From sequence record PQ400055.1: 64,000 nucleotides of DNA. One strand, 5' to 3'. The stretch is from a phage. Below are positions 7,796 through 47,258 of this stretch, in pieces. The notes beneath the pieces were generated by a model that saw only the letters and a program-made list of their open reading frames with translations, was not told where the DNA came from and did not search any database. Numbering within the stretch: position 1 is the stretch's first letter; each line of letters starts with the position of its first letter. A program made the translations under genes and the position numbers.

Positions 7796-7824
7796 ATTAA
7801 AACGGGGAGTATTTTATACTCCCC
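7796..7824 (-). terminator. hairpin/terminator between genes 45 and 44
   Basis: GGGGAGTA-ttttA-TACTCCCC inverted repeat followed on the minus strand by GTTTTAAT. Confidence 0.4.
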
Positions 7825-14846: not shown

Positions 14847-16316
14847 CTATTCCCCATTACCATTATACTTTCTTTGCTTAGTTATCCACACTCTAACCAT
14901 CTCTACAGATTCGCCGTCAGACGGATCAAGAGTTTTTCCTTTTTTCTTCATGCGGTACTTAAATCCGTTAAATCTTGCATTCTCTTGCTCGTTAAAGTCG
15001 AACATCTTTTTAAATGATTTTCGCCCTTTACGTTCACCACATTCTAGCGGAATCATTCGATCTGTTATTACATTGGCATTAGGCAGAAACGTTTTTAGAT
15101 AATCCACCAACGCCCAATCAGGAACATATAGATTAACATTCTCCTTGCTCTCGTTGTCTCTCAGGTTACAACGCAAACATAATTGAAATGCTGGTTCCAG
15201 ATAATCAGACACATGACGCGCTTTCAAAAACTCGTTTGTCGGGAGATCACAACTATTAGCAAGACCTTTTAAAATATCAATCTCCCATCGTTGAGGGTTA
15301 AAGCTGAACATCACAGCAACATTTTTATGATGAATGTAAGAGTTAAGACCATAAGACCCGTAAGGTATCCGCTCACCAATACCATTTGTACACGCTTCAC
15401 GGTCCCGATTCACGGTATAAATGAAGTCATCGCCACATTCATTTTTAACCATATCAACAAGACGTTCAAAGGTATTGTTTGTTTCTGACTGGTGACGCGA
15501 CCATCGTTCAGAGTCCGTCATAAGGATGATATTAACTCTATCTGTATTTTTATACTCTTTGAAATATAGTCTGGATTCTAGCGCACTCGGAACAAAATCG
15601 CAATTTGCATAGTATCGTAGATACTTCCCACTATATGTATCAAAGAGATTTGCACATGCTATCGTAACCTTTTTAAAGTCTCCCCACGTACCGTGTTTGT
15701 TATCGTTCAAGAAAACAATTTTCGACCCATTCTTCCGGTGTCCTTCGTTATGTTTTACCATAACGTTGATTTTCTTCTCTAATAACGCCTCATAAAGCCC
15801 TCTAAGAGAAGAATCGATCATATCAGTACCATCCTTCGCACTTTCTATCTTTTCTTTGATAGCGGCCTTCTCAGAGTCTTTTAGAACTAAGTTCTGTAGG
15901 CATTCCGATTCGTCGGCGATTGGTTCGCAATGCTTCGTGATAAGTTCAAGATTAGACTTAAACGGATACTCATTAAATTCAACCAGTTGAGGAACTTCAT
16001 CAATGTAAAGAGCATAATCACCAAACATTTTTGAACGTTCCATATTAGATAACGCTGTATGTGTAATGAATATCACATCAGCACCATCTTTAACTGATTG
16101 CATTATCGACGCTTGCACTGTCTTAAGGCTTCTTAGTCTTGTGCTATCAATCAAGACAGCACGACCGCCCATTCTTTTAAACTTATTGTAAGATTGTTCA
16201 CTTAAAACACGAGATGGCGAAGCAATAACCGCTTTTTCTTTTGTCTCTAGGACGTGGGAAAGTATAGCATCAGTTTTCCCCGCCGCTGGCAATGCGATTA
16301 ATGTTTCAATCTTCAT
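14847..16316 (-). CDS. uncharacterised P-loop NTPase with helicase-like N-terminal domain
   Basis: 489 aa; motif I ALPAAGKT, Ia-like ASPSRVLSEQ, DExx-like LYIDEVPQ; lysine/arginine-rich C-terminus; no T4 core counterpart recognised. Confidence 0.6.
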   Translation of the reverse strand: MKIETLIALPAAGKTDAILSHVLETKEKAVIASPSRVLSEQSYNKFKRMGGRAVLIDSTRLRSLKTVQASIMQSVKDGADVIFITHTALSNMERSKMFGDYALYIDEVPQLVEFNEYPFKSNLELITKHCEPIADESECLQNLVLKDSEKAAIKEKIESAKDGTDMIDSSLRGLYEALLEKKINVMVKHNEGHRKNGSKIVFLNDNKHGTWGDFKKVTIACANLFDTYSGKYLRYYANCDFVPSALESRLYFKEYKNTDRVNIILMTDSERWSRHQSETNNTFERLVDMVKNECGDDFIYTVNRDREACTNGIGERIPYGSYGLNSYIHHKNVAVMFSFNPQRWEIDILKGLANSCDLPTNEFLKARHVSDYLEPAFQLCLRCNLRDNESKENVNLYVPDWALVDYLKTFLPNANVITDRMIPLECGERKGRKSFKKMFDFNEQENARFNGFKYRMKKKGKTLDPSDGESVEMVRVWITKQRKYNGNGE

Positions 16317-16603
16317 TAGAAACCCTTACGTCGTGCTTTCTGGCATTTCTTGATCATTTTATCAGAAATTTCGCGCTTAGGTGCAATCTCTTTCACACCG
16401 AAAGCACTAATGCCAAATTCAGAGAGAATATATTCAACAAACAATTCACGCACACGCGCTTTACCGATATTCACGCCGTTATTTTTCAGATATGTCTGGC
16501 CTTCGACTTGCATCAGATCTAAATCTGCGTCGGTAATATTGATTTCTTCCATGCGCCCAAATCGAGAATAAACCATGTGTGCGATTGCATTGTGTACTAA
16601 CAT
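16316..16603 (-). CDS. hypothetical protein
   Basis: Start set to internal ATG (M7) with upstream GAGG; basic C-terminus. Confidence 0.45.
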   Translation of the reverse strand: MLVHNAIAHMVYSRFGRMEEINITDADLDLMQVEGQTYLKNNGVNIGKARVRELFVEYILSEFGISAFGVKEIAPKREISDKMIKKCQKARRKGF

Positions 16604-16624
16604 AATATATTCCTCACTCAAGAA

Positions 16625-16783
16625 TTACTTAATGATACTTACTTTACCAGATCCATGACAATGAGCGCAACACCCATCACCACGCAATCCTGTTCCGTTA
16701 CAGTGTTTACACTTCTTCAACGGTAAAGCCATTATAGCAAATAAAGCAATAATGAATACCGAAACTAAATTCTCAATAATCAT
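16625..16783 (-). CDS. small membrane/Cys-rich peptide (52 aa)
   Basis: Below track cutoff; hydrophobic N-terminal segment then CKHCNGTG...GCCAHCHGSG zinc-ribbon-like motif. Confidence 0.3.
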   Translation of the reverse strand: MIIENLVSVFIIALFAIMALPLKKCKHCNGTGLRGDGCCAHCHGSGKVSIIK

Positions 16784-17042
16784 AAATCGCCCTCAGTTCT
16801 TTATAGCCTCCAATGTGCTCGTTGTCAATGAATATCTGGGGGTATACAAACCGGAGGCTCTTTGAGTTTAGCCTCCCCGCCAGTTCTTCAATCATATCAC
16901 GGTCGGGAATAATGTCAACCCCGACCTGCTTGAATACTGGTTTAAGTGTATACGGAATACCCAGATCATCCAGTAGCTTCATTGCACTAATACAACCATA
17001 ACAATGATAAGCCTCTTTCGGTATACCGTATATCTCGATCAT
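16773..17042 (-). CDS. nrdH: glutaredoxin-like protein (NrdH-like)
   Basis: 89 aa; active site CYGC; C-terminal YPQIFIDNEHIGGYKEL glutaredoxin signature; lies near nrdG as in T4. Confidence 0.65.
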   Translation of the reverse strand: MIEIYGIPKEAYHCYGCISAMKLLDDLGIPYTLKPVFKQVGVDIIPDRDMIEELAGRLNSKSLRFVYPQIFIDNEHIGGYKELRAIYDY

Positions 17043-17560
17043 TTCTCAGCCTTTAATCTTTCTAGTTCTTCTTCCAGTTCCTTGATCCGTTGGTCACGTT
17101 CAAAGTCACGCTGTAGCTTAGTGGCAAATACTCGCTTAAACTGATTGTAATCATCGATTTTAAACACTTCTTCTTCGCCATAGCGACGTACAGAAACTTC
17201 GTAGTTGTTGAAAAATTGTTCCAACATTGCATCAGTAGTCAGTTCTGACGACACCACTTTAAAATAACGTTCTTCTGATTGCAAAAACCAGTTGTGCGCG
17301 TATTCCCGTACATCATCAACATCTCGACAGGTGTATGTTTTTCCATCAATTTCAATCGCAGAAACATATTCGATATCTGACGCAATTTTTTCAAAAGCGA
17401 TAACTTTAAATGTACGGTCACCGATAAAGTCTGCTATTGCATCATTTGCAACACTGGTTGCAAATGCTTTCCGCGCTCGCTCGTTTTTCCACTGATAGGT
17501 CATACCAACAACAAACATATTACCATCAACAAACATATTACCAACCTCGCTCTTTACCAA
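17039..17560 (-). CDS. hypothetical protein, member of local paralog family (coiled-coil C-terminus)
   Basis: 173 aa; shares GxTYxWK...IEIDGKTY...F pattern with neighbouring ORFs; C-terminal KELEEELERLKAEK. Confidence 0.5.
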   Translation of the reverse strand: MVKSEVGNMFVDGNMFVVGMTYQWKNERARKAFATSVANDAIADFIGDRTFKVIAFEKIASDIEYVSAIEIDGKTYTCRDVDDVREYAHNWFLQSEERYFKVVSSELTTDAMLEQFFNNYEVSVRRYGEEEVFKIDDYNQFKRVFATKLQRDFERDQRIKELEEELERLKAEK

Positions 17561-18362
17561 TCAAAAATTCAACTTCACGACGTTTAATGTCTTCTTGAAG
17601 GTCTTTAATCTTCTGGCGATCTTGCATGATTTCATCCATCTTGTCAAGTGCCGCAATGAAATCATCGAAACGTTCAAAGGTTTTACCTTCATTTGCTTCG
17701 CCAAATTTAACCATTGTCAGGCCGTAACGACTACTAAACAGACGTTTCAACTGTCCAACGATCTTAGAATCAGTGGTTATAACTTCCAATTCTTCTACTT
17801 CACGAAAGAATTTTCTATCAGAATCAATAAACCAGCTAGTTCCTTTATGGTCTCTATCTTCGGTTGCGCTCATTAGAGTATGGTCTTTACCATCAATTTC
17901 AATTACATCAATTTGCCCACATGGACTAACATTTTTAACAGTAAAAGGTCTATAATTTATTGCTCGTGCAATAACATAATTAAGGTTAGATACGTTTTCA
18001 GCATAATGGCAGAAGTCGGTCATAGCATTCGCATCTTTCCAAGTATAAGTTTTACCAACTTCCCATTTCTGGGGAACTTCTTCAACTTCACGAAAGAATT
18101 TTCTATCGAATGGACTAAAGAAATATGTGGCAGTCCAAATGTCTTTTCCTGTAGCAGTTTTCGCCGTATGATAAACACCGTCTAGCTCTATTGCATCAAT
18201 CCAACCGTTACCATCGATCTCGATGATGGTAAATGGCTTGTCACCAATAGCTGCACTAATATCGCTGTTAAGTGGAGAAAGAACACCTTCTCCGTTAGTA
18301 ATAAACTCAGTTTTAGCGTTTTCATCTTTCCAGGTGTAGGTTTTACCAATTTCCCATTTCAT
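17538..18362 (-). CDS. hypothetical protein with tandemly duplicated ~95 aa domain (paralog family)
   Basis: 274 aa; two copies of MKWE(I/V)GKTYTWKD...IEIDG...DRKFFREVEE followed by a coiled-coil tail. Confidence 0.55.
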   Translation of the reverse strand: MKWEIGKTYTWKDENAKTEFITNGEGVLSPLNSDISAAIGDKPFTIIEIDGNGWIDAIELDGVYHTAKTATGKDIWTATYFFSPFDRKFFREVEEVPQKWEVGKTYTWKDANAMTDFCHYAENVSNLNYVIARAINYRPFTVKNVSPCGQIDVIEIDGKDHTLMSATEDRDHKGTSWFIDSDRKFFREVEELEVITTDSKIVGQLKRLFSSRYGLTMVKFGEANEGKTFERFDDFIAALDKMDEIMQDRQKIKDLQEDIKRREVEFLIGKERGW

Positions 18363-18374
18363 AATATATTCCCC

Positions 18375-18875
18375 TTAACCGATTTTATCAAGTTCGTTTA
18401 ATGCTTTCTCTGCTTCCTGTATAGCTTGCACTCTTTCCGGCATTTTGTCAAGAAAATCTTTCAACTCTTCAAAACTGGAGATATGACGCAAGGCATTAGC
18501 ACCGATAGCCGCATGTGATTTGCATTCAAAGCGAATTTTATAATTATCCATCGCCAATTTGAGAAGGTCTATTAGATCATATTCATGACCAGGCAATAAA
18601 ACTTCTTTGAAGCACGCTCGGTCGCCATCGGAAAACCATATATTATCACCAACATCGATAGAACTAATATAATCCCCTTCGTGATTATAGATTGAACGTA
18701 CATTACCCCAACGGTCTACCGTAGCGACAGTAAATGGTTTATCTAGATATGTAAACACACCATCAATATTAGGTTTTTGTTCGTAACGCCAACAATCACG
18801 CAAAATGCGCTTTTCGTCCTCACCAACCAACTTATATGTCTTCCCTTCTTCCCATTTCATAATATCATCTCTCAT
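18375..18875 (-). CDS. hypothetical protein (paralog family)
   Basis: 166 aa; N-terminus MKWEEGKTYKL..., same domain then helical C-terminus. Confidence 0.55.
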   Translation of the reverse strand: MRDDIMKWEEGKTYKLVGEDEKRILRDCWRYEQKPNIDGVFTYLDKPFTVATVDRWGNVRSIYNHEGDYISSIDVGDNIWFSDGDRACFKEVLLPGHEYDLIDLLKLAMDNYKIRFECKSHAAIGANALRHISSFEELKDFLDKMPERVQAIQEAEKALNELDKIG

Positions 18876-19402
18876 TTTTTGATACGTGATTCTAATTGGA
18901 TCATACGGTCGCGCGTTTGCTTGTATTCGCGGATAGCACCGATCCGGCTAGGCATACCATCAAGCACGCTCTTAATCCCTTCTAGGGTAGTGATTTTAGC
19001 AATGCTATTATGTAACCCCATCTTATCGATCAACTGAATGTCGTAGGCTTCCATAAGCAGACCCAGACGTTCTAAAGTTAGGTCTTCTTCTTTTTCTTCC
19101 GATTCTGGAATCTTAGGTTCAATAATAACTTCGGTAAAGAAACGACGCTCACCCGACCAAAACCACACACCGGAACAGCCAATAGGGGATTCTTTTAACG
19201 TCATAGAGTCGAAATCACTACCGATAATAGTAATTTCTCTAACATCACCATCATCGTCAATGTCTTCTACCCTAAACGGGCGACCAGCCAACAAGTCAAC
19301 AATACATCTGTTAATAGACGACGAAAATTTAGTCAGTTCGGCTTTCGACGCTTCGCATTCAATCTTGTAAGTTTTACCAACTTCCCATTCCATAATAATC
19401 AC
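18872..19402 (-). CDS. hypothetical protein (paralog family)
   Basis: 176 aa; N-terminus MEWEVGKTYKI..., ...GERRFFTEV, helical C-terminus. Confidence 0.55.
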   Translation of the reverse strand: MIIMEWEVGKTYKIECEASKAELTKFSSSINRCIVDLLAGRPFRVEDIDDDGDVREITIIGSDFDSMTLKESPIGCSGVWFWSGERRFFTEVIIEPKIPESEEKEEDLTLERLGLLMEAYDIQLIDKMGLHNSIAKITTLEGIKSVLDGMPSRIGAIREYKQTRDRMIQLESRIKK

Positions 19403-19403
19403 C

Positions 19404-19913
19404 TCAAATAATTTTCACTGGAATACTATTAACAATCTTGTATTGTACTTGATTGTCAGACCCCCGCCACGGCTTCTTCGTTGGCATATCTTTAATATAA
19501 CGCCCATCGATGAACATGTCAACTGATTCTACAATTTTTCTTTGCTCATCATTCAATTGGTCAAGGGTATAACCGGACCATAGCCAAATATCTTTATTTG
19601 GCATCCATGATTTTACTTCATCGATGATCCGCTGTACACCCTTTAAATTGCGTTTATACAGTGGATCGCCACCTAAGAATGTTAGCCCCTGAATAAAATC
19701 AGGTCTAAGCAGGTCCAGAATCAATCCCATTGTATCATCGGTGAATGGTTCCCCGTTCTTAGGATTGAGTAGGCTAGCATTAAAGCAACCATCACATGCG
19801 TGTGAACATCCGGTAACGTAAAGGGAGACTCTCACTCCCTCACCGTTAACCATATCACAATCTTTAATATCGGCATAGCGTAGTTTGCCGTATGTATCAG
19901 AACTCATATTCAA
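19404..19913 (-). CDS. nrdG: anaerobic ribonucleotide reductase activating protein NrdG (radical SAM)
   Basis: 169 aa; CSHACDGC (CxxxCxxC) cluster; adjacent to nrdD region as in T4. Confidence 0.85.
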   Translation of the reverse strand: MNMSSDTYGKLRYADIKDCDMVNGEGVRVSLYVTGCSHACDGCFNASLLNPKNGEPFTDDTMGLILDLLRPDFIQGLTFLGGDPLYKRNLKGVQRIIDEVKSWMPNKDIWLWSGYTLDQLNDEQRKIVESVDMFIDGRYIKDMPTKKPWRGSDNQVQYKIVNSIPVKII

Positions 19914-20049
19914 TTACCCCGAACTCGTTTACAATCTGCGCTTTATAGTAACCACCGCGAGATGCTAATAGATAAGCTGGGCTTAGGTATTCGTATTCAC
20001 GGATTTCTACTTGTGCGTTTTCAGTTTCCCAAATCAGTAAAGTCCACAT
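19897..20049 (-). CDS. small hypothetical protein (50 aa)
   Basis: Track ORF 19897..20124 trimmed to internal ATG (M26) because the promoter lies in the track N-terminus; AGGAG upstream. Confidence 0.35.
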   Translation of the reverse strand: MWTLLIWETENAQVEIREYEYLSPAYLLASRGGYYKAQIVNEFGVIEYEF

Positions 20050-20091
20050 ATTTGATTCTCCTGTAAAGTTGTATCTCGTCTTGATGAATAT

Positions 20092-20120
20092 AGTATAGGG
20101 GATCTCGCGATCCCCGTCAA
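20092..20120 (-). promoter_or_regulatory. sigma70-type promoter (TTGACG-17-TATACT) with GATC-containing palindromic spacer
   Basis: Spacer GGGGATCGCGAGATCCCC carries two Dam sites; followed by leader and AGGAGAATCAAA Shine-Dalgarno. Confidence 0.45.
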
Positions 20121-20124
20121 GCAT

Positions 20125-20673
20125 TTATTTTAAATTTTTTCGAATGTAGTCAGACCATTCCTTCCCTGTCAGTTCGGTCCCATTCTGGAAACTGAAATAT
20201 TCATACGGCATCGAGTCAAGATAAAACAGGATCATACATCGCGCCATATAATACCAATCACGATTAAAGTAAACTACGTTATCGCCAGTACCATCAGCAC
20301 CTTTATCATAACCATCGCGGGTACGGGCGACCCATTGAATAGTATCATTTTTCTCACGGATCGTAACAGGTTCCCAATATCCAGCACATCCAGCATGACC
20401 ACACGAACAAGTAATGAAATATTGTCCTTTTGCTTTGTTGTCATCCCATTCACGATGGATTGGTTCGATCTCGTGAAACAGTGCTAAGCAATCATGATTA
20501 TGCAACACTGGCTTACCATCAATCAATGCATGGAATGTATACAAACGACCCGTAGACAAATAGCTATCCTCACGCTCAACCAGTTCAATAGCAATCTTTT
20601 TAGCTCGTTCTTTGTGTCGTTGTGCTTTACGCTTACGGTTTAATGATTTCATATTCACCTCACACATTATCAA
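20125..20673 (-). CDS. hypothetical protein
   Basis: 182 aa; basic N-terminus, CSCGHAGCAGY cysteine cluster. Confidence 0.5.
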   Translation of the reverse strand: MIMCEVNMKSLNRKRKAQRHKERAKKIAIELVEREDSYLSTGRLYTFHALIDGKPVLHNHDCLALFHEIEPIHREWDDNKAKGQYFITCSCGHAGCAGYWEPVTIREKNDTIQWVARTRDGYDKGADGTGDNVVYFNRDWYYMARCMILFYLDSMPYEYFSFQNGTELTGKEWSDYIRKNLK

Positions 20674-21209
20674 AGGTCGCGATATAGTACATTATGAAAA
20701 TGAGAACTTGCATTACCAATATTGTAGATAATAAATTCTTCATCCGGCGCTTGCGCTACAAATTGAGTATGAGCAACCGCCACAACCTTAAAAATACGAT
20801 CCGTGATCTTGTGTTTAATTTCTGCCCCTACTTCCATAGGAACATATTCATTTGTTTCTGTTTCAGTCGCAAAACAGCCATCTTCTTCATAAGCACGAAC
20901 AAATCGATCGCAATCAGTACGCTTAACAAATTCAAGAGTATACAATTCTCGTGAATTGTCGGTATAGACCAATACAGAATTATTATGATAGCGAATCACA
21001 TACAGGTTATTATCATCGTCAATTACGCAAAAGCTACGGATTCCTTCGCCTTTACTCCAGCAGATATTAACCACCGTTCCTCTAATAAAAAAACTTTCCT
21101 TTAAATTAAAACTAGTCAATGTGCTAGCGTGCATTTTAACAACAACACCATCGCCAATTTCCAGTTTACGAAGTTTAACTTCTTTGTTCAGTACACAAAA
21201 CATCATCAT
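20670..21209 (-). CDS. hypothetical protein
   Basis: 179 aa ORF immediately downstream of a promoter; start overlaps stop of next gene. Confidence 0.5.
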   Translation of the reverse strand: MMMFCVLNKEVKLRKLEIGDGVVVKMHASTLTSFNLKESFFIRGTVVNICWSKGEGIRSFCVIDDDNNLYVIRYHNNSVLVYTDNSRELYTLEFVKRTDCDRFVRAYEEDGCFATETETNEYVPMEVGAEIKHKITDRIFKVVAVAHTQFVAQAPDEEFIIYNIGNASSHFHNVLYRDL

Positions 21210-21238
21210 GTTGTCCTCTCGTTGTTTTCGATGTGAGC

Positions 21239-21266
21239 ATTATACATTAGCTAATCATGTTGTCAA
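21239..21266 (-). promoter_or_regulatory. sigma70-type promoter (TTGACA-16-TATAAT)
   Basis: Exact -35 and -10 hexamers on the minus strand; leader GCTCACATCGAAAACAACGAGAGGA. Confidence 0.5.
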
Positions 21267-21270
21267 CACC

Positions 21271-21305
21271 CCAAAACGAAAAAGCCGACCCTTTCGGATC
21301 GGCTG
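21271..21305 (-). terminator. rho-independent terminator after nrdD
   Basis: AGCCGATCC-gaaa-GGGTCGGCT hairpin followed by TTTTTCGTTTT on the minus strand. Confidence 0.55.
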
Positions 21306-21309
21306 AAAT

Positions 21310-23172
21310 TTACATGTGCTTAACGCGGTTTACCATCTCGGAGTGTTTCCCGTGGTTGAATGGACGCAGATCAACAGATCCAAGATATCCACTAACGCGA
21401 CGGATAACATTCATCTTTTCCAGATTGTCATTACCGCAATCAGGACAAACAAAACCAGACTCGGTCGCTCTCATTTCCTTAGTAGATCCGCATACATGAC
21501 ATACATCAGAAGGAGTATTAACACCGAAGTAGTGCAATTTATCCATTGCATAGTCTACTACAGTTTCAAGACCTTTCAGGTTGTTTTTCATGTCTGGGAA
21601 CTCAACATAAGAGATCATGCCACCGGACGCCAGCCAGTGATAATCTTTCTCAAAGTCAATTTTCTCAAATGGAGTGACTTTCCGGTCTACGTCAAGGTGG
21701 AATGAGTTGGTGTACCAGTCTTTATCGGTAGCACCCTTAACAATACCAAATTGCTCTCGGTCCAGTCGATTAAATCGATAGCAAAGGCTCTCGGCTGGAG
21801 TACCGTAAAGACTAAACCCAAGTCCGGTTTCGTCCTTCCATTTTTCAGTATAATGACGCAAGATCTTAAGAATATGTTTACCGTATCGCTGCGCATCTTC
21901 CGAATCAAACGGATGAACACCAAACAGGACGCTCAATACCTCATGTAAACCAATATATCCAAGAGAGATACTAGCGCGACCATCTTTCAACACTTCCAAA
22001 ATTTCATCGTTTTGATGAATACGGAAAAACGCACCTTCGGTATACAGCACCGGAGCAACATTGGCTTTAGCCCCTTTTAAAGCGTCTACGCGACTCATGA
22101 GCGCATCAAAGCAAATAGGCATACGATTGGCTAGCTCTTGTTCGAATAGCTCAATTCTGCGCATTACAGACGCTTTACCAGCACGACGCGCGGCAATAAG
22201 GGCAATACGCGGAAGATTCAGGGTCACAACACCCAAGTTATTACGTCCGTCTAATACTTCTTCTCCTTTCTCATTATGCCACACACCCAGGAAGCTACGA
22301 CAACCCATCGGGCTAACCGGAACACTAGATCCGGTGATACTACGGTTATTCTTCGCAGAGATATAATCAGGGTAAAGACGCTTACTAGAACATTCCAATG
22401 CAAGTTGCTTAATGTCGTAGTTCGGATCTTCCGGTTTAAGGTTTAATCCTTCTTCTAAGAACATCACCAGCTTAGGAAACACCGGAGTGATACCATCTTT
22501 ACCTAAACCTTTAGTTCGAACGTTCAGGATCGCTTTCTGAATCAGTTTTTCTTCCCAGCTAGTACCCATACCAAAGGTTAAAGTCACAAAAGGCGTTTGA
22601 CCGTTGGTGGAGAACAAAGTGTTGATTTCATATTCCAACGCCTGATATCCGTCTAACGTTTCTTTTTCTGTTTTCTCTTGTGCATAGAGAGTATCAGCTT
22701 TGATTCCGTAGGTTTCGGCATCAGCAAGGTGTTTATAATATGTTTTCTCAACATACGGTGCTAACACCTGATCGATGTTTGCGATTGTGGTCCCGCCATA
22801 TTGATGACTTGCCACCTGTGCGATAATTTGAGCGGTTACAGCACAAGCAACGCCGATTGATTTCGGACTTTCGATTTGTGCGCTACCCAATTTAAAACCA
22901 TTCTCTAACATGTCTTTGAGATTAACAAGACAGCAGTTAGTAAACGGCATAGCGGGTGCATAATCCATATCATGATAATGAATGTCACCGTCTACATGCG
23001 CTTTATAGATGTGCTCAGGTAACACGGTTTTAGCAATCTGTTTAGACACAGCACCAGCAATCAGATCTCGACGTGTCGGGAATGTTCGCGCGTCTTTGTT
23101 CGCGTTCTCTTTGCTTACTTCGTTTTCTTTACCCGTTGCGATCTCTGTAATGTCTTTGATTAGTTTTTCCAT
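21310..23172 (-). CDS. nrdD: anaerobic ribonucleoside-triphosphate reductase NrdD (class III, glycyl radical)
   Basis: 620 aa; C-terminal zinc ribbon CxxC...CxxC and glycyl radical motif RVSGYLG; uninterrupted (no intron evident). Confidence 0.93.
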   Translation of the reverse strand: MEKLIKDITEIATGKENEVSKENANKDARTFPTRRDLIAGAVSKQIAKTVLPEHIYKAHVDGDIHYHDMDYAPAMPFTNCCLVNLKDMLENGFKLGSAQIESPKSIGVACAVTAQIIAQVASHQYGGTTIANIDQVLAPYVEKTYYKHLADAETYGIKADTLYAQEKTEKETLDGYQALEYEINTLFSTNGQTPFVTLTFGMGTSWEEKLIQKAILNVRTKGLGKDGITPVFPKLVMFLEEGLNLKPEDPNYDIKQLALECSSKRLYPDYISAKNNRSITGSSVPVSPMGCRSFLGVWHNEKGEEVLDGRNNLGVVTLNLPRIALIAARRAGKASVMRRIELFEQELANRMPICFDALMSRVDALKGAKANVAPVLYTEGAFFRIHQNDEILEVLKDGRASISLGYIGLHEVLSVLFGVHPFDSEDAQRYGKHILKILRHYTEKWKDETGLGFSLYGTPAESLCYRFNRLDREQFGIVKGATDKDWYTNSFHLDVDRKVTPFEKIDFEKDYHWLASGGMISYVEFPDMKNNLKGLETVVDYAMDKLHYFGVNTPSDVCHVCGSTKEMRATESGFVCPDCGNDNLEKMNVIRRVSGYLGSVDLRPFNHGKHSEMVNRVKHM

Positions 23173-23183
23173 TGTATCACCTA

Positions 23184-23206
23184 TGAAAAAGCGGGATTTC
23201 TCCCGC
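23184..23206 (-). terminator. terminator-like hairpin upstream of nrdD
   Basis: GCGGGA-tttc-TCCCGC followed by TTTTTC on the minus strand. Confidence 0.45.
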
Positions 23207-23216
23207 TCGTTGATAG

Positions 23217-23711
23217 TTATTTTACCAGTTCTGCTAATTCTTTTTCTTTAGCTTCTAGTTCAGCTTTAAGCTGTTTAATCTCTTGTCGCTTCTTATTAGC
23301 GGCTTCCTGCTTACTATTTCGGATAACCTGATCTAGATACAACTCCCAATCCTGAATATTTTTGATAATGTATCCGTCAACATTAATTGGTCGGAGATTC
23401 AGTACAGCTTCCAGTTTAGTCGCAAAAACTTTAATTGCTGGCGTGAAGTATTCATATTCGTTATCTTCAAACCAATAACCTAGACTTGCATTATCAATAC
23501 GAAGACGAAGTTCAAGATCAAGGTCTTTATCTTCGGTGTAAAGATCTTTCACCTGACCCAGCGAACTAACAACAACTTTAAAACGAATTTTATCTACACC
23601 ACCAAACACATCAGTAAGTATACCAGCAATTGAGCTATTAGCGCAAGATTGGTCGCTGAATGCGTCAAGGTTTTCTTTAGTTACAGTATACCAAACATCT
23701 TGTACCCACAT
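23217..23711 (-). CDS. hypothetical protein with coiled-coil C-terminus
   Basis: 164 aa; C-terminal KKRQEIKQLKAELEAKEKELAELVK. Confidence 0.5.
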   Translation of the reverse strand: MWVQDVWYTVTKENLDAFSDQSCANSSIAGILTDVFGGVDKIRFKVVVSSLGQVKDLYTEDKDLDLELRLRIDNASLGYWFEDNEYEYFTPAIKVFATKLEAVLNLRPINVDGYIIKNIQDWELYLDQVIRNSKQEAANKKRQEIKQLKAELEAKEKELAELVK

Positions 23712-23741
23712 AATATAATCCTCTCGTTGTTAAGTGGGAGT

Positions 23742-23769
23742 ATTATAGCATACTCCCTTCGCATGTCAA
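23742..23769 (-). promoter_or_regulatory. sigma70-type promoter (TTGACA-16-TATAAT) with -10 inside GGGAGTA/TACTCCC palindrome
   Basis: Reverse complement TTGACA..GGGAGTAtgcTATAATACTCCC; -35 overlaps the upstream stop codon. Confidence 0.5.
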
Positions 23770-24944
23770 GCACTAACTTTTTTCTTTACTGCTTTCACCT
23801 TCTGGCGAATTGCTCGAATCTCTTCGATCTCTTTTTCAGTCTCTTTAACAATTTCTTTGCGATTCTGAATATCTGTATCTAGATTATCATCAAGTTTAGG
23901 CAGCATGTCAATCAAGAACTTTTTAAAGTCTTTCAGGTTTCGGATAACAGCACCTTCACCCATTACCGCCACGCCTACACCATCCGGCAGATCACCAAAC
24001 AGCTTAACCAGTTCAGACAGATGATCATGATCTTCTAGTGCTTCTTCCGGTTCAGATGGCAGTTCAACAAAGTTATAACGTTCATCATTGCTGATCAAGT
24101 GATACCAGCAAAGACCGAAAGATTTCGGTGTATATTCTACACCATCAATTTCAACCGCGTCAACACTTCCATAATCATCTACTTTAGTTACCTTAAATCC
24201 TTGTCCCAGCTTTTGAACAATTTCAACAACATGACTTGATACAGTTTCAGCGGTAAACCAATATGGCAAATTATGCTGATTTGGTTTGTAGCGTTCACCT
24301 ACTTTAAATCTCTGACCATCCGCTTGCATAGAATGAAATTGTTGTTTCGTGATTTCCGCGAAGTATTCAAATTCGCTACCGTCAAACAAGCAATTCCATT
24401 GATCACAAAAACGGTCCGCCTTGACGGTTTCACCTTTCGCGGTGATCATGGTAGCTGATCCGTGCAATTCTTCTTCAACTAAAAAGCCATATTCGACAAA
24501 ATCAACAAGTTTCATGGCTTCTTTGTGCTCTGGGTCATGCTCTCCCCAGAATCGCTTAAATTCTTGCAAACCTTCTGGGGTAAACGAATAACATTTACCT
24601 TTTTCAAAGTAAGTCGGCATTGCATCCTCTTTCTTGTTCATCGCTTCGTATGCCTCTTTTGAGATACGTTTAAAGTATTTGCGCTCATTGTGCATAATCA
24701 TAGTAGACCAATAATAAACGATATCCTCAGCGGAATAAACTACATCTCCAGCTTCAATAGTAATAACATGACCGTGGTCATCTTTTTCTAATACTTTAAA
24801 GCCCTTTTCTACGATTTCAGCAACCCGAATATGACCACGGCGCGAAGCATCGGTCAGAATAATTGAATAGCGAGAAAAGTCTAGAAACTCATCTTTACCG
24901 CCTTCACGGAATGCATAGTAATGACCTTCAAAGAATTTAGCCAT
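23766..24944 (-). CDS. hypothetical protein (paralog family, two domain copies plus coiled coil)
   Basis: 392 aa; repeated RKYFKRISKEAYE-type elements shared with 25001..25585; C-terminal charged helix. Confidence 0.55.
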   Translation of the reverse strand: MAKFFEGHYYAFREGGKDEFLDFSRYSIILTDASRRGHIRVAEIVEKGFKVLEKDDHGHVITIEAGDVVYSAEDIVYYWSTMIMHNERKYFKRISKEAYEAMNKKEDAMPTYFEKGKCYSFTPEGLQEFKRFWGEHDPEHKEAMKLVDFVEYGFLVEEELHGSATMITAKGETVKADRFCDQWNCLFDGSEFEYFAEITKQQFHSMQADGQRFKVGERYKPNQHNLPYWFTAETVSSHVVEIVQKLGQGFKVTKVDDYGSVDAVEIDGVEYTPKSFGLCWYHLISNDERYNFVELPSEPEEALEDHDHLSELVKLFGDLPDGVGVAVMGEGAVIRNLKDFKKFLIDMLPKLDDNLDTDIQNRKEIVKETEKEIEEIRAIRQKVKAVKKKVSA

Positions 24945-24975
24945 AATATAATCCTCTCGTTGTTTAGATGGGAGT

Positions 24976-25004
24976 ATCTTACTACTCCCGTTTCATCATG
25001 TCAA
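24976..25004 (-). promoter_or_regulatory. sigma70-type promoter (TTGACA-17-TAAGAT) in palindrome
   Basis: GGGAGTAgTAAGATACTCCC with -10 in the loop; 17 nt spacer. Confidence 0.45.
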
Positions 25005-25585
25005 GCGTTAAATGACTTTTGGATCTCTTTCAGTTCTTCCACTTTCTCGGCGCTGAATTTAGCGTAGGTATCATGTCGAATAATTTCACTTTCAAGAAAG
25101 GTTTCCAGTCGAGATCTATTTTCAATAAGGAACTCTTTCAGGTCTTCCGCGTTCTTGATAAAGATTTTATTGTCGGTAATGTCATCTTCAATCGCAAAGG
25201 AGATAGAGCGAACTTTACCAAACAAGTTAATCAGATCTTCCAGAGATTCTTCTTTCTTAACTGGTTTCATTTCTTCAAACTGCTTTTTAGTGATGCGTTT
25301 AAAGTATTTGCGCTCGCTTGCATCAATCATGATTGACGCACCCTCATAATCATGAGTTTCTACCAAATACACTTTACCCATAACATTAACCGTAAGAACT
25401 TTAAAGCCCCTGTGAAGCACACCATACAGGAACTTGTTATGTTGTGGGTAGCGTTTAACAAATTCCTCTGCGGACTCAGCATTACGGAAAGTGTAATAAC
25501 GACCTCGTTCAAAAACAGCATCATTTGAAGACTTAGCCGGATACAATTTATACGTTTTCTGTACCATAATATAATCCTCTATCAT
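25001..25585 (-). CDS. hypothetical protein (paralog family)
   Basis: 194 aa; shares ERKYFKRITKKQFEEM with 23766..24944. Confidence 0.5.
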   Translation of the reverse strand: MIEDYIMVQKTYKLYPAKSSNDAVFERGRYYTFRNAESAEEFVKRYPQHNKFLYGVLHRGFKVLTVNVMGKVYLVETHDYEGASIMIDASERKYFKRITKKQFEEMKPVKKEESLEDLINLFGKVRSISFAIEDDITDNKIFIKNAEDLKEFLIENRSRLETFLESEIIRHDTYAKFSAEKVEELKEIQKSFNA

Positions 25586-25854
25586 TTCACTAATTGAACA
25601 GCACGGAACAGAATGCGCTCACACGGAAGCAGCATAAATTCCCAACGCGGATCAAAGTCTTTAGCGGTGTACGTTTTCCCATCAACCGAGATTTCACTTA
25701 CATAACCAACAGGTGACACTTTAAGAACAGTAAACCCATTCTTGATGACTTCGTAGGTATCTTTCACCCCTTCGTATTCATCATCTAAGAAGTCTTTATG
25801 TGCTTGCTCAGATTTAAAAACATAGGCCACACCGGATTTAAACATCTTACGCAT
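25582..25854 (-). CDS. hypothetical protein (paralog family, single domain)
   Basis: Start at internal ATG (M21); MRKMFKSGVAYVFK...ISVDGKTYTAKDF. Confidence 0.45.
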   Translation of the reverse strand: MRKMFKSGVAYVFKSEQAHKDFLDDEYEGVKDTYEVIKNGFTVLKVSPVGYVSEISVDGKTYTAKDFDPRWEFMLLPCERILFRAVQLVK

Positions 25855-25885
25855 TGTTGATTCTCCTTCTTGATTAGATGGGAGT

Positions 25886-25914
25886 ATTTTACTACTCCCA
25901 TTTCTTATTGTCAA
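25886..25914 (-). promoter_or_regulatory. sigma70-type promoter (TTGACA-17-TAAAAT) in palindrome
   Basis: GGGAGTAgTAAAATACTCCC; immediately downstream of the endonuclease VII stop. Confidence 0.45.
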
Positions 25915-25917
25915 CTA

Positions 25918-26391
25918 CTATCTTAATCTTTGTATGAATTGTTTCTTATACTTCTTCGTGATCTCTTCTCTTGTATCAGCGTCGCAGTAATCGAAACCTT
26001 CTGCGTCCATAATAGCAACCATCTCCGCGCGTGTCAAGCGTGAAAATCGTTTTACTTTATCAACAGCATATTGAGGATGTAAATGATTGTTGGTGTAGTC
26101 TCCTTTGATGTAATTAACATAGTTTGTAGCCCAAACAACGAAATCAGCACCTAAAGCACCAACACCAAACCGTTTAAAGTCTCCGGTCAACGATCCTTCT
26201 AGGCGGTTGCAACACGAATGAAGCAATCCCCTTACGCGGCCTTGCCCTTTACCATCTAGATCGTGGTCGTGGTCAAGATGGTTTTTGCTCATATCCTCAA
26301 AAAGTGGCAATTGACAAAGGGGGCAAATGCCCCCCTGTTTTTCGAATAGTTCTTGTTTGTACTCTTTAGCACTCTTAGCAGTCAGTAACAT
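25918..26391 (-). CDS. 49: recombination endonuclease VII (Holliday junction resolvase gp49)
   Basis: Start at internal ATG (M6); GGICPLCQ...HLDHDHDL...GLLHSCCN zinc/His motifs closely match T4 endo VII. Confidence 0.85.
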   Translation of the reverse strand: MLLTAKSAKEYKQELFEKQGGICPLCQLPLFEDMSKNHLDHDHDLDGKGQGRVRGLLHSCCNRLEGSLTGDFKRFGVGALGADFVVWATNYVNYIKGDYTNNHLHPQYAVDKVKRFSRLTRAEMVAIMDAEGFDYCDADTREEITKKYKKQFIQRLR

Positions 26392-26415
26392 AAATTCACC
26401 CTCCAAAGAAGGTAT

Positions 26416-26697
26416 TTAACCATTAATCTTGTTTTTGACTACAAAGGATCGGAACTCATCAAAACCACCGATATAATCACCATCATAGAAAATCTGCGGC
26501 ATGGTGGCAATAACTTCTACCCCTGCGCGATCCTGAATATCGGCAATGATAGAATCAATCTTTACCGGGCGACCGTTTTCGTCCACACCATCATTAACCG
26601 GAATGTAGATGTAAGGGATCTTACGCGCTTCACAAAGGCGCTTTGCATTCTGGCAATACTTACAGTTGTAACCTTCAAAACCAAAAATTTCTACCAT
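26416..26697 (-). CDS. nrdC: NrdC thioredoxin
   Basis: Start at internal ATG (M5); active site CKYC, NAKRL, MPQIF...GDYIGGFDEF like T4 NrdC. Confidence 0.8.
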   Translation of the reverse strand: MVEIFGFEGYNCKYCQNAKRLCEARKIPYIYIPVNDGVDENGRPVKIDSIIADIQDRAGVEVIATMPQIFYDGDYIGGFDEFRSFVVKNKING

Positions 26698-26705
26698 GTT
26701 ATACC

Positions 26706-27518
26706 TCAATCTACGTTAGTTACATAAACTTCTTGCGTATCAGAAGACTTGCCACCTGAACGATCTAGGCAATAGGTCTTATTCAACAAGACGCAGTTTA
26801 AATCATTCCGCTTGATAAAGTCAAGAAGATGATCATTTGCCTTTCCCTTATGATGCGTGACATTACTTATACCAAACTGAAAACCACGCGCCATAATAGA
26901 TTCTACCCACTGATAGAATTTAATCTCTTCCTCGTCACTCCAGAACTTATTGTATTCCGCAGAAGTGATAAGGTACGGCGGGTCCAAATAAACGAAATCA
27001 CCTGGCAAGATCTCGATCTCGTCATAACGACCAGAAGTAAAACTGATTCGACCGTCTTTGTTTTCTTCCTTAAAATTCAGGACGCGCTCTACCGCGTTTT
27101 CGTTAAAAGTCCGTCGGCCAAAATTAGCATTAAATTCTCCCTTCCTGTTATGGCGGTTAATGTTGCTAAAACTGTGCTGAATCAACACAAACAGAGATAG
27201 AGGGTCTGGATTCTCGTTATACTTCTTACGGAATGTCATGTAAGCGTCTTTATCTTCGCGAGACAAACCATTTTCGGCAATAATACGCTTGATCGTAGAA
27301 ACCGGATCAGGACACTCATCAATGGCCTTGTAAGCGTCAATTAAGCGATGATCATAGTCATTAGCCAGTACATCACCTTCAACATACAGAGACACGCTCA
27401 AGCCACCACAAAAGGCATCAACAAAGCGGTTATAGTGCTTAGGGAAATATTTACTAACACCGGGCAATAACTTTTCCTTATTGCCCGTATAGGGAATTAA
27501 ACCTAATGCTTTCTTCAT
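26706..27518 (-). CDS. dam: Dam DNA N6-adenine methyltransferase
   Basis: 270 aa; PYTGNK, NRFVDAFCGGLSVSL, DPPYLITSAEYNKFWSDEEE almost identical to the T4 Dam motifs. Confidence 0.88.
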   Translation of the reverse strand: MKKALGLIPYTGNKEKLLPGVSKYFPKHYNRFVDAFCGGLSVSLYVEGDVLANDYDHRLIDAYKAIDECPDPVSTIKRIIAENGLSREDKDAYMTFRKKYNENPDPLSLFVLIQHSFSNINRHNRKGEFNANFGRRTFNENAVERVLNFKEENKDGRISFTSGRYDEIEILPGDFVYLDPPYLITSAEYNKFWSDEEEIKFYQWVESIMARGFQFGISNVTHHKGKANDHLLDFIKRNDLNCVLLNKTYCLDRSGGKSSDTQEVYVTNVD

Positions 27519-29146: not shown

Positions 29147-29521
29147 TTAAAAATCTTCTTCCGGTTTATATCGACCGTCATCGACTGGTTTTGGACTGAA
29201 TCCTTTATGCGTGCGCGGCTTCGCTTCCGGTTTACCAGCAATCATCAAACCAAAACATTTCAGCCCCTTATAACACATAACAATATCAACCACGGTCCAC
29301 GTTATAGGCCAGACGATTGCAGCAATACAAAATGCTCCTGTATCGACCTCTTTGGTGTCCTTGTCGAATCTGGCATACAAGCAGAATACTAGATACGAGA
29401 TCATTGCACCAGTAATCCAGATATAAAGTACATTAACAATATCTTGTGTTGTCAAATTGTCCTCCTTACATGTCTTGCAGTGCATAAAAGCATTTTTCTT
29501 CGTAGTCATAGAAAATGTCAA
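29147..29521 (-). CDS. predicted membrane protein
   Basis: Track start is a non-ATG codon (true start probably at internal M5 or M13); two hydrophobic segments. Confidence 0.45.
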   Translation of the reverse strand: MTFSMTTKKNAFMHCKTCKEDNLTTQDIVNVLYIWITGAMISYLVFCLYARFDKDTKEVDTGAFCIAAIVWPITWTVVDIVMCYKGLKCFGLMIAGKPEAKPRTHKGFSPKPVDDGRYKPEEDF

Positions 29522-29744
29522 AGTATGCTTTTTCTACATACTCGCCATTGATCCAAGCGGCAGTAACAATCAGAGTGGTCCAGGTAGATCCGCTCTCAAC
29601 GGTAAAGGTTTTAATACCCAGCTTCGCTGCCAAGTCGAACGCAAACCGGACGCAACCACGGCAGGAAGTGATATTGGAAGTTTTGATTTTAAAGCCACCG
29701 CGAGTTTTAGAAATTTCTACTTTAGCGAAAGACAGGTTGCTCAT
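29466..29744 (-). CDS. hypothetical protein
   Basis: Start at internal ATG (M20) directly after the conserved leader and AAGGAG. Confidence 0.45.
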   Translation of the reverse strand: MSNLSFAKVEISKTRGGFKIKTSNITSCRGCVRFAFDLAAKLGIKTFTVESGSTWTTLIVTAAWINGEYVEKAYFDIFYDYEEKCFYALQDM

Positions 29745-29786
29745 TTTGATTCTCCTTAAGAAAGTGTGTTTCGTTTTGATGTGTGT

Positions 29787-29815
29787 AGTATAGGGGATCA
29801 CCGATCCCCTGTCAA
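29787..29815 (-). promoter_or_regulatory. sigma70-type promoter (TTGACA-17-TATACT) with GATC palindrome spacer
   Basis: Spacer GGGGATCGGTGATCCCC (two GATC sites); conserved leader ACATCAAAACGAAACACACTTTCTTAAGGAG. Confidence 0.45.
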
Positions 29816-29831
29816 CAACTTTTTTATGATT

Positions 29832-46747: not shown

Positions 46748-46778
46748 TTTGATTCTCCTTTCGTTTGTTTGTGGGGGT

Positions 46779-46807
46779 ATCTTACTACCCCCGTTTCATG
46801 TTGTCAA
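46779..46807 (-). promoter_or_regulatory. sigma70-type promoter (TTGACA-17-TAAGAT) in GGGGGTA/TACCCCC palindrome
   Basis: Same architecture as the 38918 and 24976 copies. Confidence 0.45.
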
Positions 46808-46813
46808 CTATTT

Positions 46814-47188
46814 TTAAGAATATTTTACTTCGTCTACAATGTCTTTCATGACATTGATTTCCATTCCGGTCAGAACACGTTGGAACATGTGCTGCACATA
46901 CGCTTTCAGGTATTCATTTGATGGCTTACTATCGAAAGTCTTTTTAGTGTAGTAGTCATCACCGAAAGCTACTGTAATTACATTTTCGTCGTCGCTCCAA
47001 GCGATATAAGCAAATTTGCCGTTATCCCAGAAGCGAGCACTAATTGCTACTTTTGTTGAATCGAATCCTACTTCGCTGTGAGATTCAAGAACTACTTGTG
47101 TGCCAGTTTCTTTATGAATGTAGTAGCGGGATACTAAGTCAAAGTTACGGGTGTAGTGACATTCGAATTTATCTTTAAACATCATCAT
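46814..47188 (-). CDS. hypothetical protein
   Basis: Start at internal ATG (M23) preceded by AGGAGAATCAAA; the track N-terminus covers the promoter/leader. Confidence 0.45.
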   Translation of the reverse strand: MMMFKDKFECHYTRNFDLVSRYYIHKETGTQVVLESHSEVGFDSTKVAISARFWDNGKFAYIAWSDDENVITVAFGDDYYTKKTFDSKPSNEYLKAYVQHMFQRVLTGMEINVMKDIVDEVKYS

Positions 47189-47225
47189 TTTGATTCTCCT
47201 AAGTGTGTTTCGTTTCGATATGTGC

Positions 47226-47254
47226 ATTATGCTATAGTCGTTTATGGTTGTCAA
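47226..47254 (-). promoter_or_regulatory. sigma70-type promoter (TTGACA-17-CATAAT)
   Basis: Leader GCACATATCGAAACGAAACACACTTAGGAGAATCAAA. Confidence 0.45.
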
Positions 47255-47258
47255 TACC

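Follow-up and report, generated by a model that had tools for sequence, protein, structure and literature searches.

A probable early-gene cluster of a Krischvirus phage combining a tandem GoF/Frd.2/MotB.1 paralog family with PeSL promoter-hairpin cassettes

The 64,000-nucleotide stretch of phage DNA analyzed here (sequence record PQ400055.1, referred to as the window) belongs to a Krischvirus, an RB49-type, T4-like coliphage from a genus placed outside the subfamily Tevenvirinae. Its segment 23185-25917 is very probably an early-gene cluster within a hyperplastic region of the Krischvirus genome, a degree of confidence that covers the identity of the parts taken jointly and excludes their biochemical function. 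The cluster is a local expansion of two known things, the GoF/Frd.2/MotB.1 protein family and the promoter-hairpin cassettes termed PeSLs. Four open reading frames (ORFs), all on the minus strand and here called block 2, are located between gene 49 (endonuclease VII) and nrdD and correspond to RB49p057, p058, p059 and p060. A second group of four paralogs, block 1 (17039-19393), corresponds to RB49p048-p051 and is located between nrdG and nrdH. By megablast, positions 23000-26100 matched 59 phage records, all of them Krischvirus; identity was 99.6% with phage kaaroe and 97.4% with RB49. In GenBank, RB49p058 carries the name 'frd.2' in the RB49, JSE and Phi1 entries (AY343333, EU863408, EF437941), and RefSeq labels both RB49p058 and p059 'goF mRNA metabolism modulator'. 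The genes and their N-terminal domains (N-domains) are as follows, with E-values from profiles built without the gene in question given as leave-one-out E:

25582..25854, minus strand: RB49p060-like gene, 90 amino acids (aa); a single GoF-type N-domain without C-terminal tail; leave-one-out E 4.8e-16.
25001..25567, minus strand: RB49p059-like gene, 188 aa; N-domain and helical C-terminal region; phrog_8944 'goF' 6e-102; leave-one-out E 7.9e-12.
23766..24944, minus strand: RB49p058-like gene ('frd.2'), 392 aa; three tandem N-domains and a C-terminal helical/coiled region.
24621-24944, 24321-24620 and 24045-24320, minus strand: N-domains of the 392-aa protein; leave-one-out domain E 2.5e-10, 2.6e-5 and 4.8e-9.
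23766-24044, minus strand: C-terminal helical/coiled region of the 392-aa protein.
23217..23711, minus strand: RB49p057-like gene, 164 aa; most divergent member; phrog_3710 2.4e-4; block-1 hidden Markov model (HMM) E 1.1e-3; leave-one-out E 5e-4.
17039-17518, 17538-18362 (two N-domains), 18375-18860 and 18872-19393, minus strand: block 1, four paralogs, tightly packed and without PeSL between them.

A first-pass annotation of the window had proposed that the two blocks form one paralog family, and profile comparison, set beforehand as the refuting test, was positive: hhalign aligned the two domain profiles over 84 columns with 98.2% probability (E 3e-14). An HMM derived solely from block 1 (five N-domains), searched against the 639 six-frame ORFs of the window of at least 40 aa, recovered the four block-2 ORFs (E 2e-12, 1e-10, 2.6e-5 and 1.1e-3), and beyond block 2 no window ORF in this set fell below E 0.03. 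The reciprocal search with a block-2 profile returned each gene of block 1 (E 1.5e-15 to 1.4e-5), and leave-one-gene-out profiles recovered every gene. In addition, PHROG cross-hits link the genes through phrog_5347, 622, 3710 and 16115 and through three 'goF' families (8944, 13003, 2980). The shared unit is an N-terminal domain of about 95 aa that has three invariant residues (Y, F, F) and three nearly invariant ones (G, V, G); 11 such domains occur in the 8 genes, two of them in 17538-18362 and three in 23766-24944. The earlier count of eight related genes within 9 kb flanking nrdD (17039-19393 and 23217-25854) was likewise borne out.

A profile made from the 11 window domains only identified T4 GoF with 36.2 bits (E 1e-10 for a database size of 639), Frd.2 with 16.1 bits (1.4e-4) and MotB.1 with 9.9 bits (0.02), each alignment spanning the whole domain. 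The domain is the N-terminal domain of the GoF/Frd.2/MotB.1 proteins, which have been described as an early T4 protein family with an N-terminal 'LSm-like' five-stranded barrel whose nearest solved structures are FeoA/IdeR-type SH3 domains (Kim et al., 2025; PMC12152347). The AlphaFold2 model of 25582-25854 (pLDDT 92.7, pTM 0.82) runs in the order beta-alpha-alpha-beta-beta-beta-(alpha)-beta, the bracketed element being a short helix. The N-domain is predicted to be a beta-barrel of the SH3/LSm-like type into which two helices are inserted. The nearest solved folds of this model are of the FeoA, IdeR-SH3, Mib and Tudor types. In BFVD, it matches many T4-like phage proteins (TMq 0.7-0.87), several of which have two domains, and an annotated GoF is among the matches (TMq 0.75). 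An N-domain followed by a linker and a variable C-terminal region was found in 3/4 block-2 proteins and 4/4 block-1 proteins, the exception being 25582-25854, which consists of the N-domain alone.

The family is narrow, as an exhaustive profile search returned only 78 clusters at E<=1e-3 among 1.8 billion proteins. Searches of Pfam and NCBIfam gave no significant match for the block proteins, nor did an Rfam scan of 16000-27000. For the 392-aa protein, tblastn against the phage collection returned Krischvirus matches only, word-indexed protein searches did likewise, and the cluster members named are from Krischvirus alone. When the complete RB49 genome was scanned in six frames (1572 ORFs), the eight genes and Dc2 were identified, and no family member appeared at the positions of T4 goF and frd.2. 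Dc2 (RB49p021, 211 aa; RB49 NC_005066 11993-12628, just outside the window start) was recovered as a ninth member (E 2e-6); it adjoins the helicase gene 41 upstream, and its ECD7 orthologue has a BFVD TMq of 0.76. The position of Dc2 is suggestive because T4 GoF(D25Y) exerts its effect on the leader of gene 41. As further members within the window, the N-domain profile yielded just marginal partial matches at 42980-43312, 46817-47257 and 29469-29831. The match in 42980-43312 (RB49p109; E 0.004-0.03) extends over some 30 residues around the pair of strands with the FxV...G pattern, and this gene was excluded from the members. Proteins of 700-1700 aa (P0076, P0080, P0085, P0096, P0100, P0107 and others) showed 4-9 short profile matches at positions ~34-72, which are probably unrelated beta-hairpin repeats.

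The four block-2 ORFs exist on the minus strand as first annotated, with the start of the third gene corrected. This gene most likely starts at 25567 (MVQKTY) and not at 25585, because GAGGATTATATT, the ribosome-binding context upstream of the 25567 ATG, precedes it as it does the 23711 and 24944 start codons, and because the RB49 annotation uses 25567. The spacer between the stop of 25582-25854 and this start is 14 nt; 25001-25567 has no promoter of its own and is probably co-transcribed with 25582-25854. Sequence elements that had been taken as common to the four ORFs turned out to be distributed more sparsely. ERKYFKRI(S/T)K is present in repeat 1 of 23766-24944 and in 25001-25567 and absent from the other two genes, and VxEIDG(K/V)xYT was found as an xEIDGxxYT-like stretch in repeat 3 of 23766-24944 and as the variant SVDGKTYT in 25582-25854, not in all four. 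An EIDGxxYT-type motif is present in block-1 genes too. Neither motif occurs in 23217-23711, the weakest member by sequence. The 392-aa protein had been described as internally duplicated; it is indeed repetitive, but triplicated, as leave-one-out profiles recover three domains in 23766-24944.

The palindromic promoters in block 2 are PeSLs. About 50 of these elements occur per genome in RB49 and phi1, and they are composed of an upstream stop codon, an AT-rich stretch, a consensus sigma-70 promoter with a stem-loop, a Shine-Dalgarno sequence (SD) and an ATG; the stem-loop usually overlaps the -10 or lies in the interval from -35 to -10 (Arbiol et al., 2010; PMC2839356). They are found mainly before ORFans in hyperplastic regions, nrdD being among the few associated genes of known function; promoter and terminator activity was demonstrated for selected PeSLs, and recombination between PeSLs gave rise to mini-circles (PMC2839356). 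These activity and mini-circle data were obtained with PeSLs 206/205, 211/210 and 193/192, not with the three cassettes of block 2, which are:

25855..25917, minus strand: PeSL cassette 1, between the gene 49 (endonuclease VII) stop and the ATG at 25854; SD GGAG.
25914-25909, 25891-25886 and 25899-25880, minus strand: -35 TTGACA, -10 TAAAAT and hairpin core (GGGAGTA GTAAAA TACTCCC) of cassette 1; promoter match 11/12, spacer 17; RNA fold -13.8 kcal/mol, z -3.1.
24945..25004, minus strand: PeSL cassette 2; -35 TTGACA 25004-24999; -10 TAAGAT 24981-24976; hairpin 24989-24970; SD GAGAGG; promoter match 10/12, spacer 17; RNA fold -13.6 kcal/mol, z -3.9.
23712..23769, minus strand: PeSL cassette 3; -35 TTGACA 23769-23764; TG-extended -10 TATAAT 23747-23742; hairpin 23757-23736; SD GAGAGG; promoter match 12/12, spacer 16; RNA fold -14.5 kcal/mol, z -3.2.

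The first-pass annotation had placed a TTGACA promoter with its -10 in the loop of an inverted repeat before each of the four genes. This arrangement precedes three of them, where the genes do lie behind sigma-70-type promoters overlapping hairpins (12/12, 10/12 and 11/12), and the -10 hexamer spans the loop and reaches 1-2 nt into the 3' arm. No promoter or hairpin was found upstream of 25001-25567, and no PeSL in block 1. The stop codon of the upstream gene is located inside the -35 hexamer in cassettes 2 and 3, where it is TGA, and 3 nt upstream of the -35 in cassette 1, and the stems of the three cassettes comprise 7-9 bp. Exact GGGAGTA...TACTCCC inverted repeats occur 4 times in the window versus 0 expected, three of them at 23736-23757, 24970-24989 and 25880-25899. 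The palindromes had also been regarded as a feature of the gene block, but while three are present there, they represent a generic element of RB49-like phages (PMC2839356) that also precedes unrelated ORFans: RB49 has 12 copies of a GGGNGTA/TACNCCC hairpin subclass on its transcribed strand, located ahead of small ORFs that are unrelated. Stem position 4 varies among the copies as A-U, G-C, U-A and once G.U with complementarity kept, a covariation that speaks for a folded strand rather than a family-specific operator. Further window copies of this subclass precede unrelated small ORFs at 38912-38931, 44269-44290 and 46773-46792. The fourth exact GGGAGTA/TACTCCC repeat, at 7805-7823 on the minus strand, forms a hairpin GGGGAGTATAAAATACTCCCC then GTTTTAAT located 3' of a TTGACT...TATAAT promoter; it looks terminator-like, in an arrangement unlike that of the other three.

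Block 2 was intact in 59/59 Krischvirus records with 90-99.6% DNA identity; at the protein level, the 392-aa product shows 90.8-100% identity among these records. Block 1 (17000-19450) is a mosaic, with phage G5211 as best match (98.4%) and kaaroe, which matches block 2 best, at only 93% identity over 89% coverage. Compared to RB49, the 17039 gene is 77.8% and the 18375 gene 68.6% identical, versus 98-100% for the neighbouring genes. A metagenomic Logan contig of a related phage (SRR11185258; L004:5001-5465) carries an in-frame deletion of ~1.47 kb corresponding to window 17773-19240, by which the first ~50 codons of the 18872 gene, encoding its N-domain, are joined to the end of the 17538 gene to yield a 154-aa chimera (P0064), with loss of the 18375 gene. 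This in-frame paralog fusion is direct evidence for unequal recombination between paralogous domains. The family may have grown by the same kind of unequal homologous recombination, including the in-frame domain duplications that would have produced the two- and three-domain proteins.

How the cluster might operate can be outlined as follows. Host RNA polymerase would start at each PeSL immediately after infection. As the -10 lies in the loop and the 3' arm, the cassette's own transcript would lack the 5' arm and hence the hairpin, which would form only in read-through RNA arriving from upstream and there attenuate, terminate or mark the 3' end of the upstream transcripts, while the canonical terminator at 23185-23208 would close the block before nrdD. 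The paralogs would bind RNA or an RNA-metabolism factor and thereby alter mRNA stability or Rho-linked read-through. By analogy with T4 GoF, such modulation of mRNA fate in early infection is the single most likely role of the paralogs, a preference that we hold tentatively. T4 GoF D25Y stabilises RNA, and D25Y and G84R allow T4 growth on restrictive rho alleles (PMC12152347). Within the family, effects on mRNA or with rho (nusD) are known for these T4 GoF mutants only, and wild-type T4 GoF is abundant yet has little effect in the RNA-stability reporter (PMC12152347). Among T4 genes with no assigned function, frd.2 alone scored 'Fit' in a CRISPRi-ART screen (PMC11879866).

At the residues that correspond to GoF-25 and GoF-84 in the alignment, repeat 2 of 17538-18362 carries Y and K, 18872-19393 F and R, repeat 1 of 23766-24944 F and K, and 25001-25567 R and K. 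Several of these copies natively combine an aromatic residue with Lys/Arg at the D25Y/G84R positions, and the Krischvirus array might consist of natively 'activated' GoF-type factors. The two- and three-domain proteins, joined via their long C-terminal helices, could then form ring-like multi-barrel assemblies comparable to LSm/Hfq that shield early and middle phage mRNAs from Rho or RNases, with copy number tuned by paralog recombination. We regard this more elaborate version as unlikely.

Several observations weigh against the proposed reading of the cluster, both in its parts and in its function. The N-domains are acidic in 9/11 cases (isoelectric point 4.4-5.9, two exceptions), which disfavours direct RNA binding; for the proteins, the isoelectric point is mostly 4.4-5.2, with two exceptions. 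The sequence tie of 23217-23711 is weak, with a leave-one-out E of 5e-4 where the best non-family ORF reaches 8e-3, and in its model (pLDDT 77.7) a helix replaces the expected beta-4, leaving a partial barrel. The best BFVD matches of this model are family members, one of them a GoF, and after the N-domain come a short helix, then a beta-hairpin and finally a helix of 45 residues. The helical C-termini, initially listed as a common element, are alike in layout across the blocks (short helix, beta-hairpin, long helix), but no significant similarity between them emerged from hhalign (7.5% probability) or HMM search (E 0.054), and 25582-25854 has no such tail. Terminator activity of the present hairpins, which have no U-tract, is assumed by analogy with one different PeSL tested by Arbiol et al. 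Early expression, finally, is predicted from the consensus sigma-70 promoters.

A protein-binding role in host takeover ranks just below mRNA modulation and is nearly as likely. Here, the proteins would be host-takeover or anti-defence adaptors whose SH3-like barrel contacts a host factor or defence protein, the expansion tracking variable targets, with no direct role in RNA metabolism. The acidity of most copies would suit such adaptors, as would the FeoA, IdeR-SH3, Mib and Tudor neighbours, which are mostly protein- or ligand-binding modules, the little effect of wild-type GoF on RNA (PMC12152347), and the presence of variable or allelic copies in the mosaic block 1 (68.6-77.8% identity to RB49 next to neighbours of 98-100%). 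However, block 2 is well conserved in 59 isolates from many hosts, unlike what a fast arms race would produce, no partner is known, and the sole functional data in the family tie a GoF mutant to mRNA stability and rho alleles. Pull-downs with GoF recovered only GoF itself and are neutral in this regard.

We consider it quite improbable that mobile PeSL cassettes carry these genes as dispensable cargo, which recombination-driven spread would maintain without benefit to the phage. PeSLs do mediate ORFan shuffling and mini-circle formation (PMC2839356), the T4 homologues are non-essential in the laboratory, and the natural deletion removes ~1.5 kb of block 1. Nevertheless, block 1 is entirely devoid of PeSLs, the four block-2 ORFs remained intact in 59/59 records with a 392-aa protein 90.8-100% identical, T4 frd.2 scored as 'Fit' in CRISPRi-ART (PMC11879866), and GoF is abundant at ~20,000 copies per cell. 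It is highly improbable that the GGGAGTA/TACTCCC repeats are double-stranded operators for a dimeric regulator of the paralog family, possibly an autoregulating paralog: their dyad symmetry over the -10 box is in a classic operator position at three successive promoters, but this candidate was rejected since the same cassette precedes unrelated ORFans (12 in RB49) and stem position 4 covaries from A-U to G-C to U-A with pairing kept, and, moreover, block 1 and the 25001 gene have no such site and stem-loop formation and terminator activity were shown for a PeSL (Arbiol et al., PMC2839356).

Further promoters and terminators were noted around the blocks:

23185..23208, minus strand: intrinsic-terminator-like hairpin (GAGCGGGA GAAA UCCCGCUU followed by UUUC), closing block 2 just before nrdD; -17.2 kcal/mol, z -4.6.

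A strong terminator-like hairpin (9 bp and a T-run) is located at 21239-21304 on the minus strand directly after nrdD. It is directly followed by a 12/12 promoter, TTGACA-16-TATAAT, for the 20670-21209 gene; terminator and promoter are separate here, unlike their overlap in PeSLs. Within nrdG, ~100 nt upstream of block 1, the near-consensus site TTGACA-17-TATATT at 19494-19522 (minus strand) is a candidate promoter that could drive this PeSL-free block. Another near-consensus site, TTGACA-17-TATTAT, is present at 26009-26037 within the coding sequence of gene 49.

Through the analysis, eight 'hypothetical' genes of a widely used therapeutic-phage genus, nine with Dc2, acquire a name and a fold. 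The analysis shows that the GoF family is able to form tandem arrays and multi-domain fusions outside the Tevenvirinae. It also provides natural variants at two GoF gain-of-function positions that are ready for the published reporter assay and could reveal the wild-type role of the family. PeSLs (2010) and the GoF/Frd.2/MotB.1 family (2025) had already been described, and no new category is added; the details added are the array, the fusions of two and three domains, Dc2, the chimera that arose naturally, and which residues occupy the go-mutation positions.

Among known systems, the C-terminal SH3-like domains of FeoA and IdeR-SloR (CATH 2.30.30.90) and Hfq/LSm share 5-16% sequence identity with the present domain, which amounts to fold resemblance only and not to membership. 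The present domain differs from FeoA/IdeR in the two helices inserted between beta-1 and beta-2, and GoF was reported to lack the FeoA/IdeR-type metal-ligand histidine pattern (Kim et al., PMC12152347). The cassettes are the same composite, in the same phage lineage, as the PeSLs of RB49 and phi1 (Arbiol et al., 2010, PMC2839356; Comeau et al., 2014, PMC4122927), with no essential difference. In detail, however, the present three use GGGAGTA/TACTCCC where PMC2839356 stresses poly-G/poly-C stems, all three are without U-tract, and no PeSL-bounded indel of block 2 was found among the 59 genomes. With the GoF/Frd.2/MotB.1 trio the block proteins share a homologous N-terminal five-stranded barrel domain of ~90 aa and its structural neighbours, the succession of N-domain, acidic linker and variable C-terminal region, an acidic character and early-type promoters. 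The differences lie in the setting and the architecture: Krischvirus lies outside the Tevenvirinae, with RB49 unmentioned by Kim et al. (PMC12152347), and whereas T4 has three dispersed single-domain genes, the present phage carries eight, which form two tandem arrays around nrdD/nrdG, in addition to Dc2, with covalent fusions of two and three domains and long C-terminal helices.

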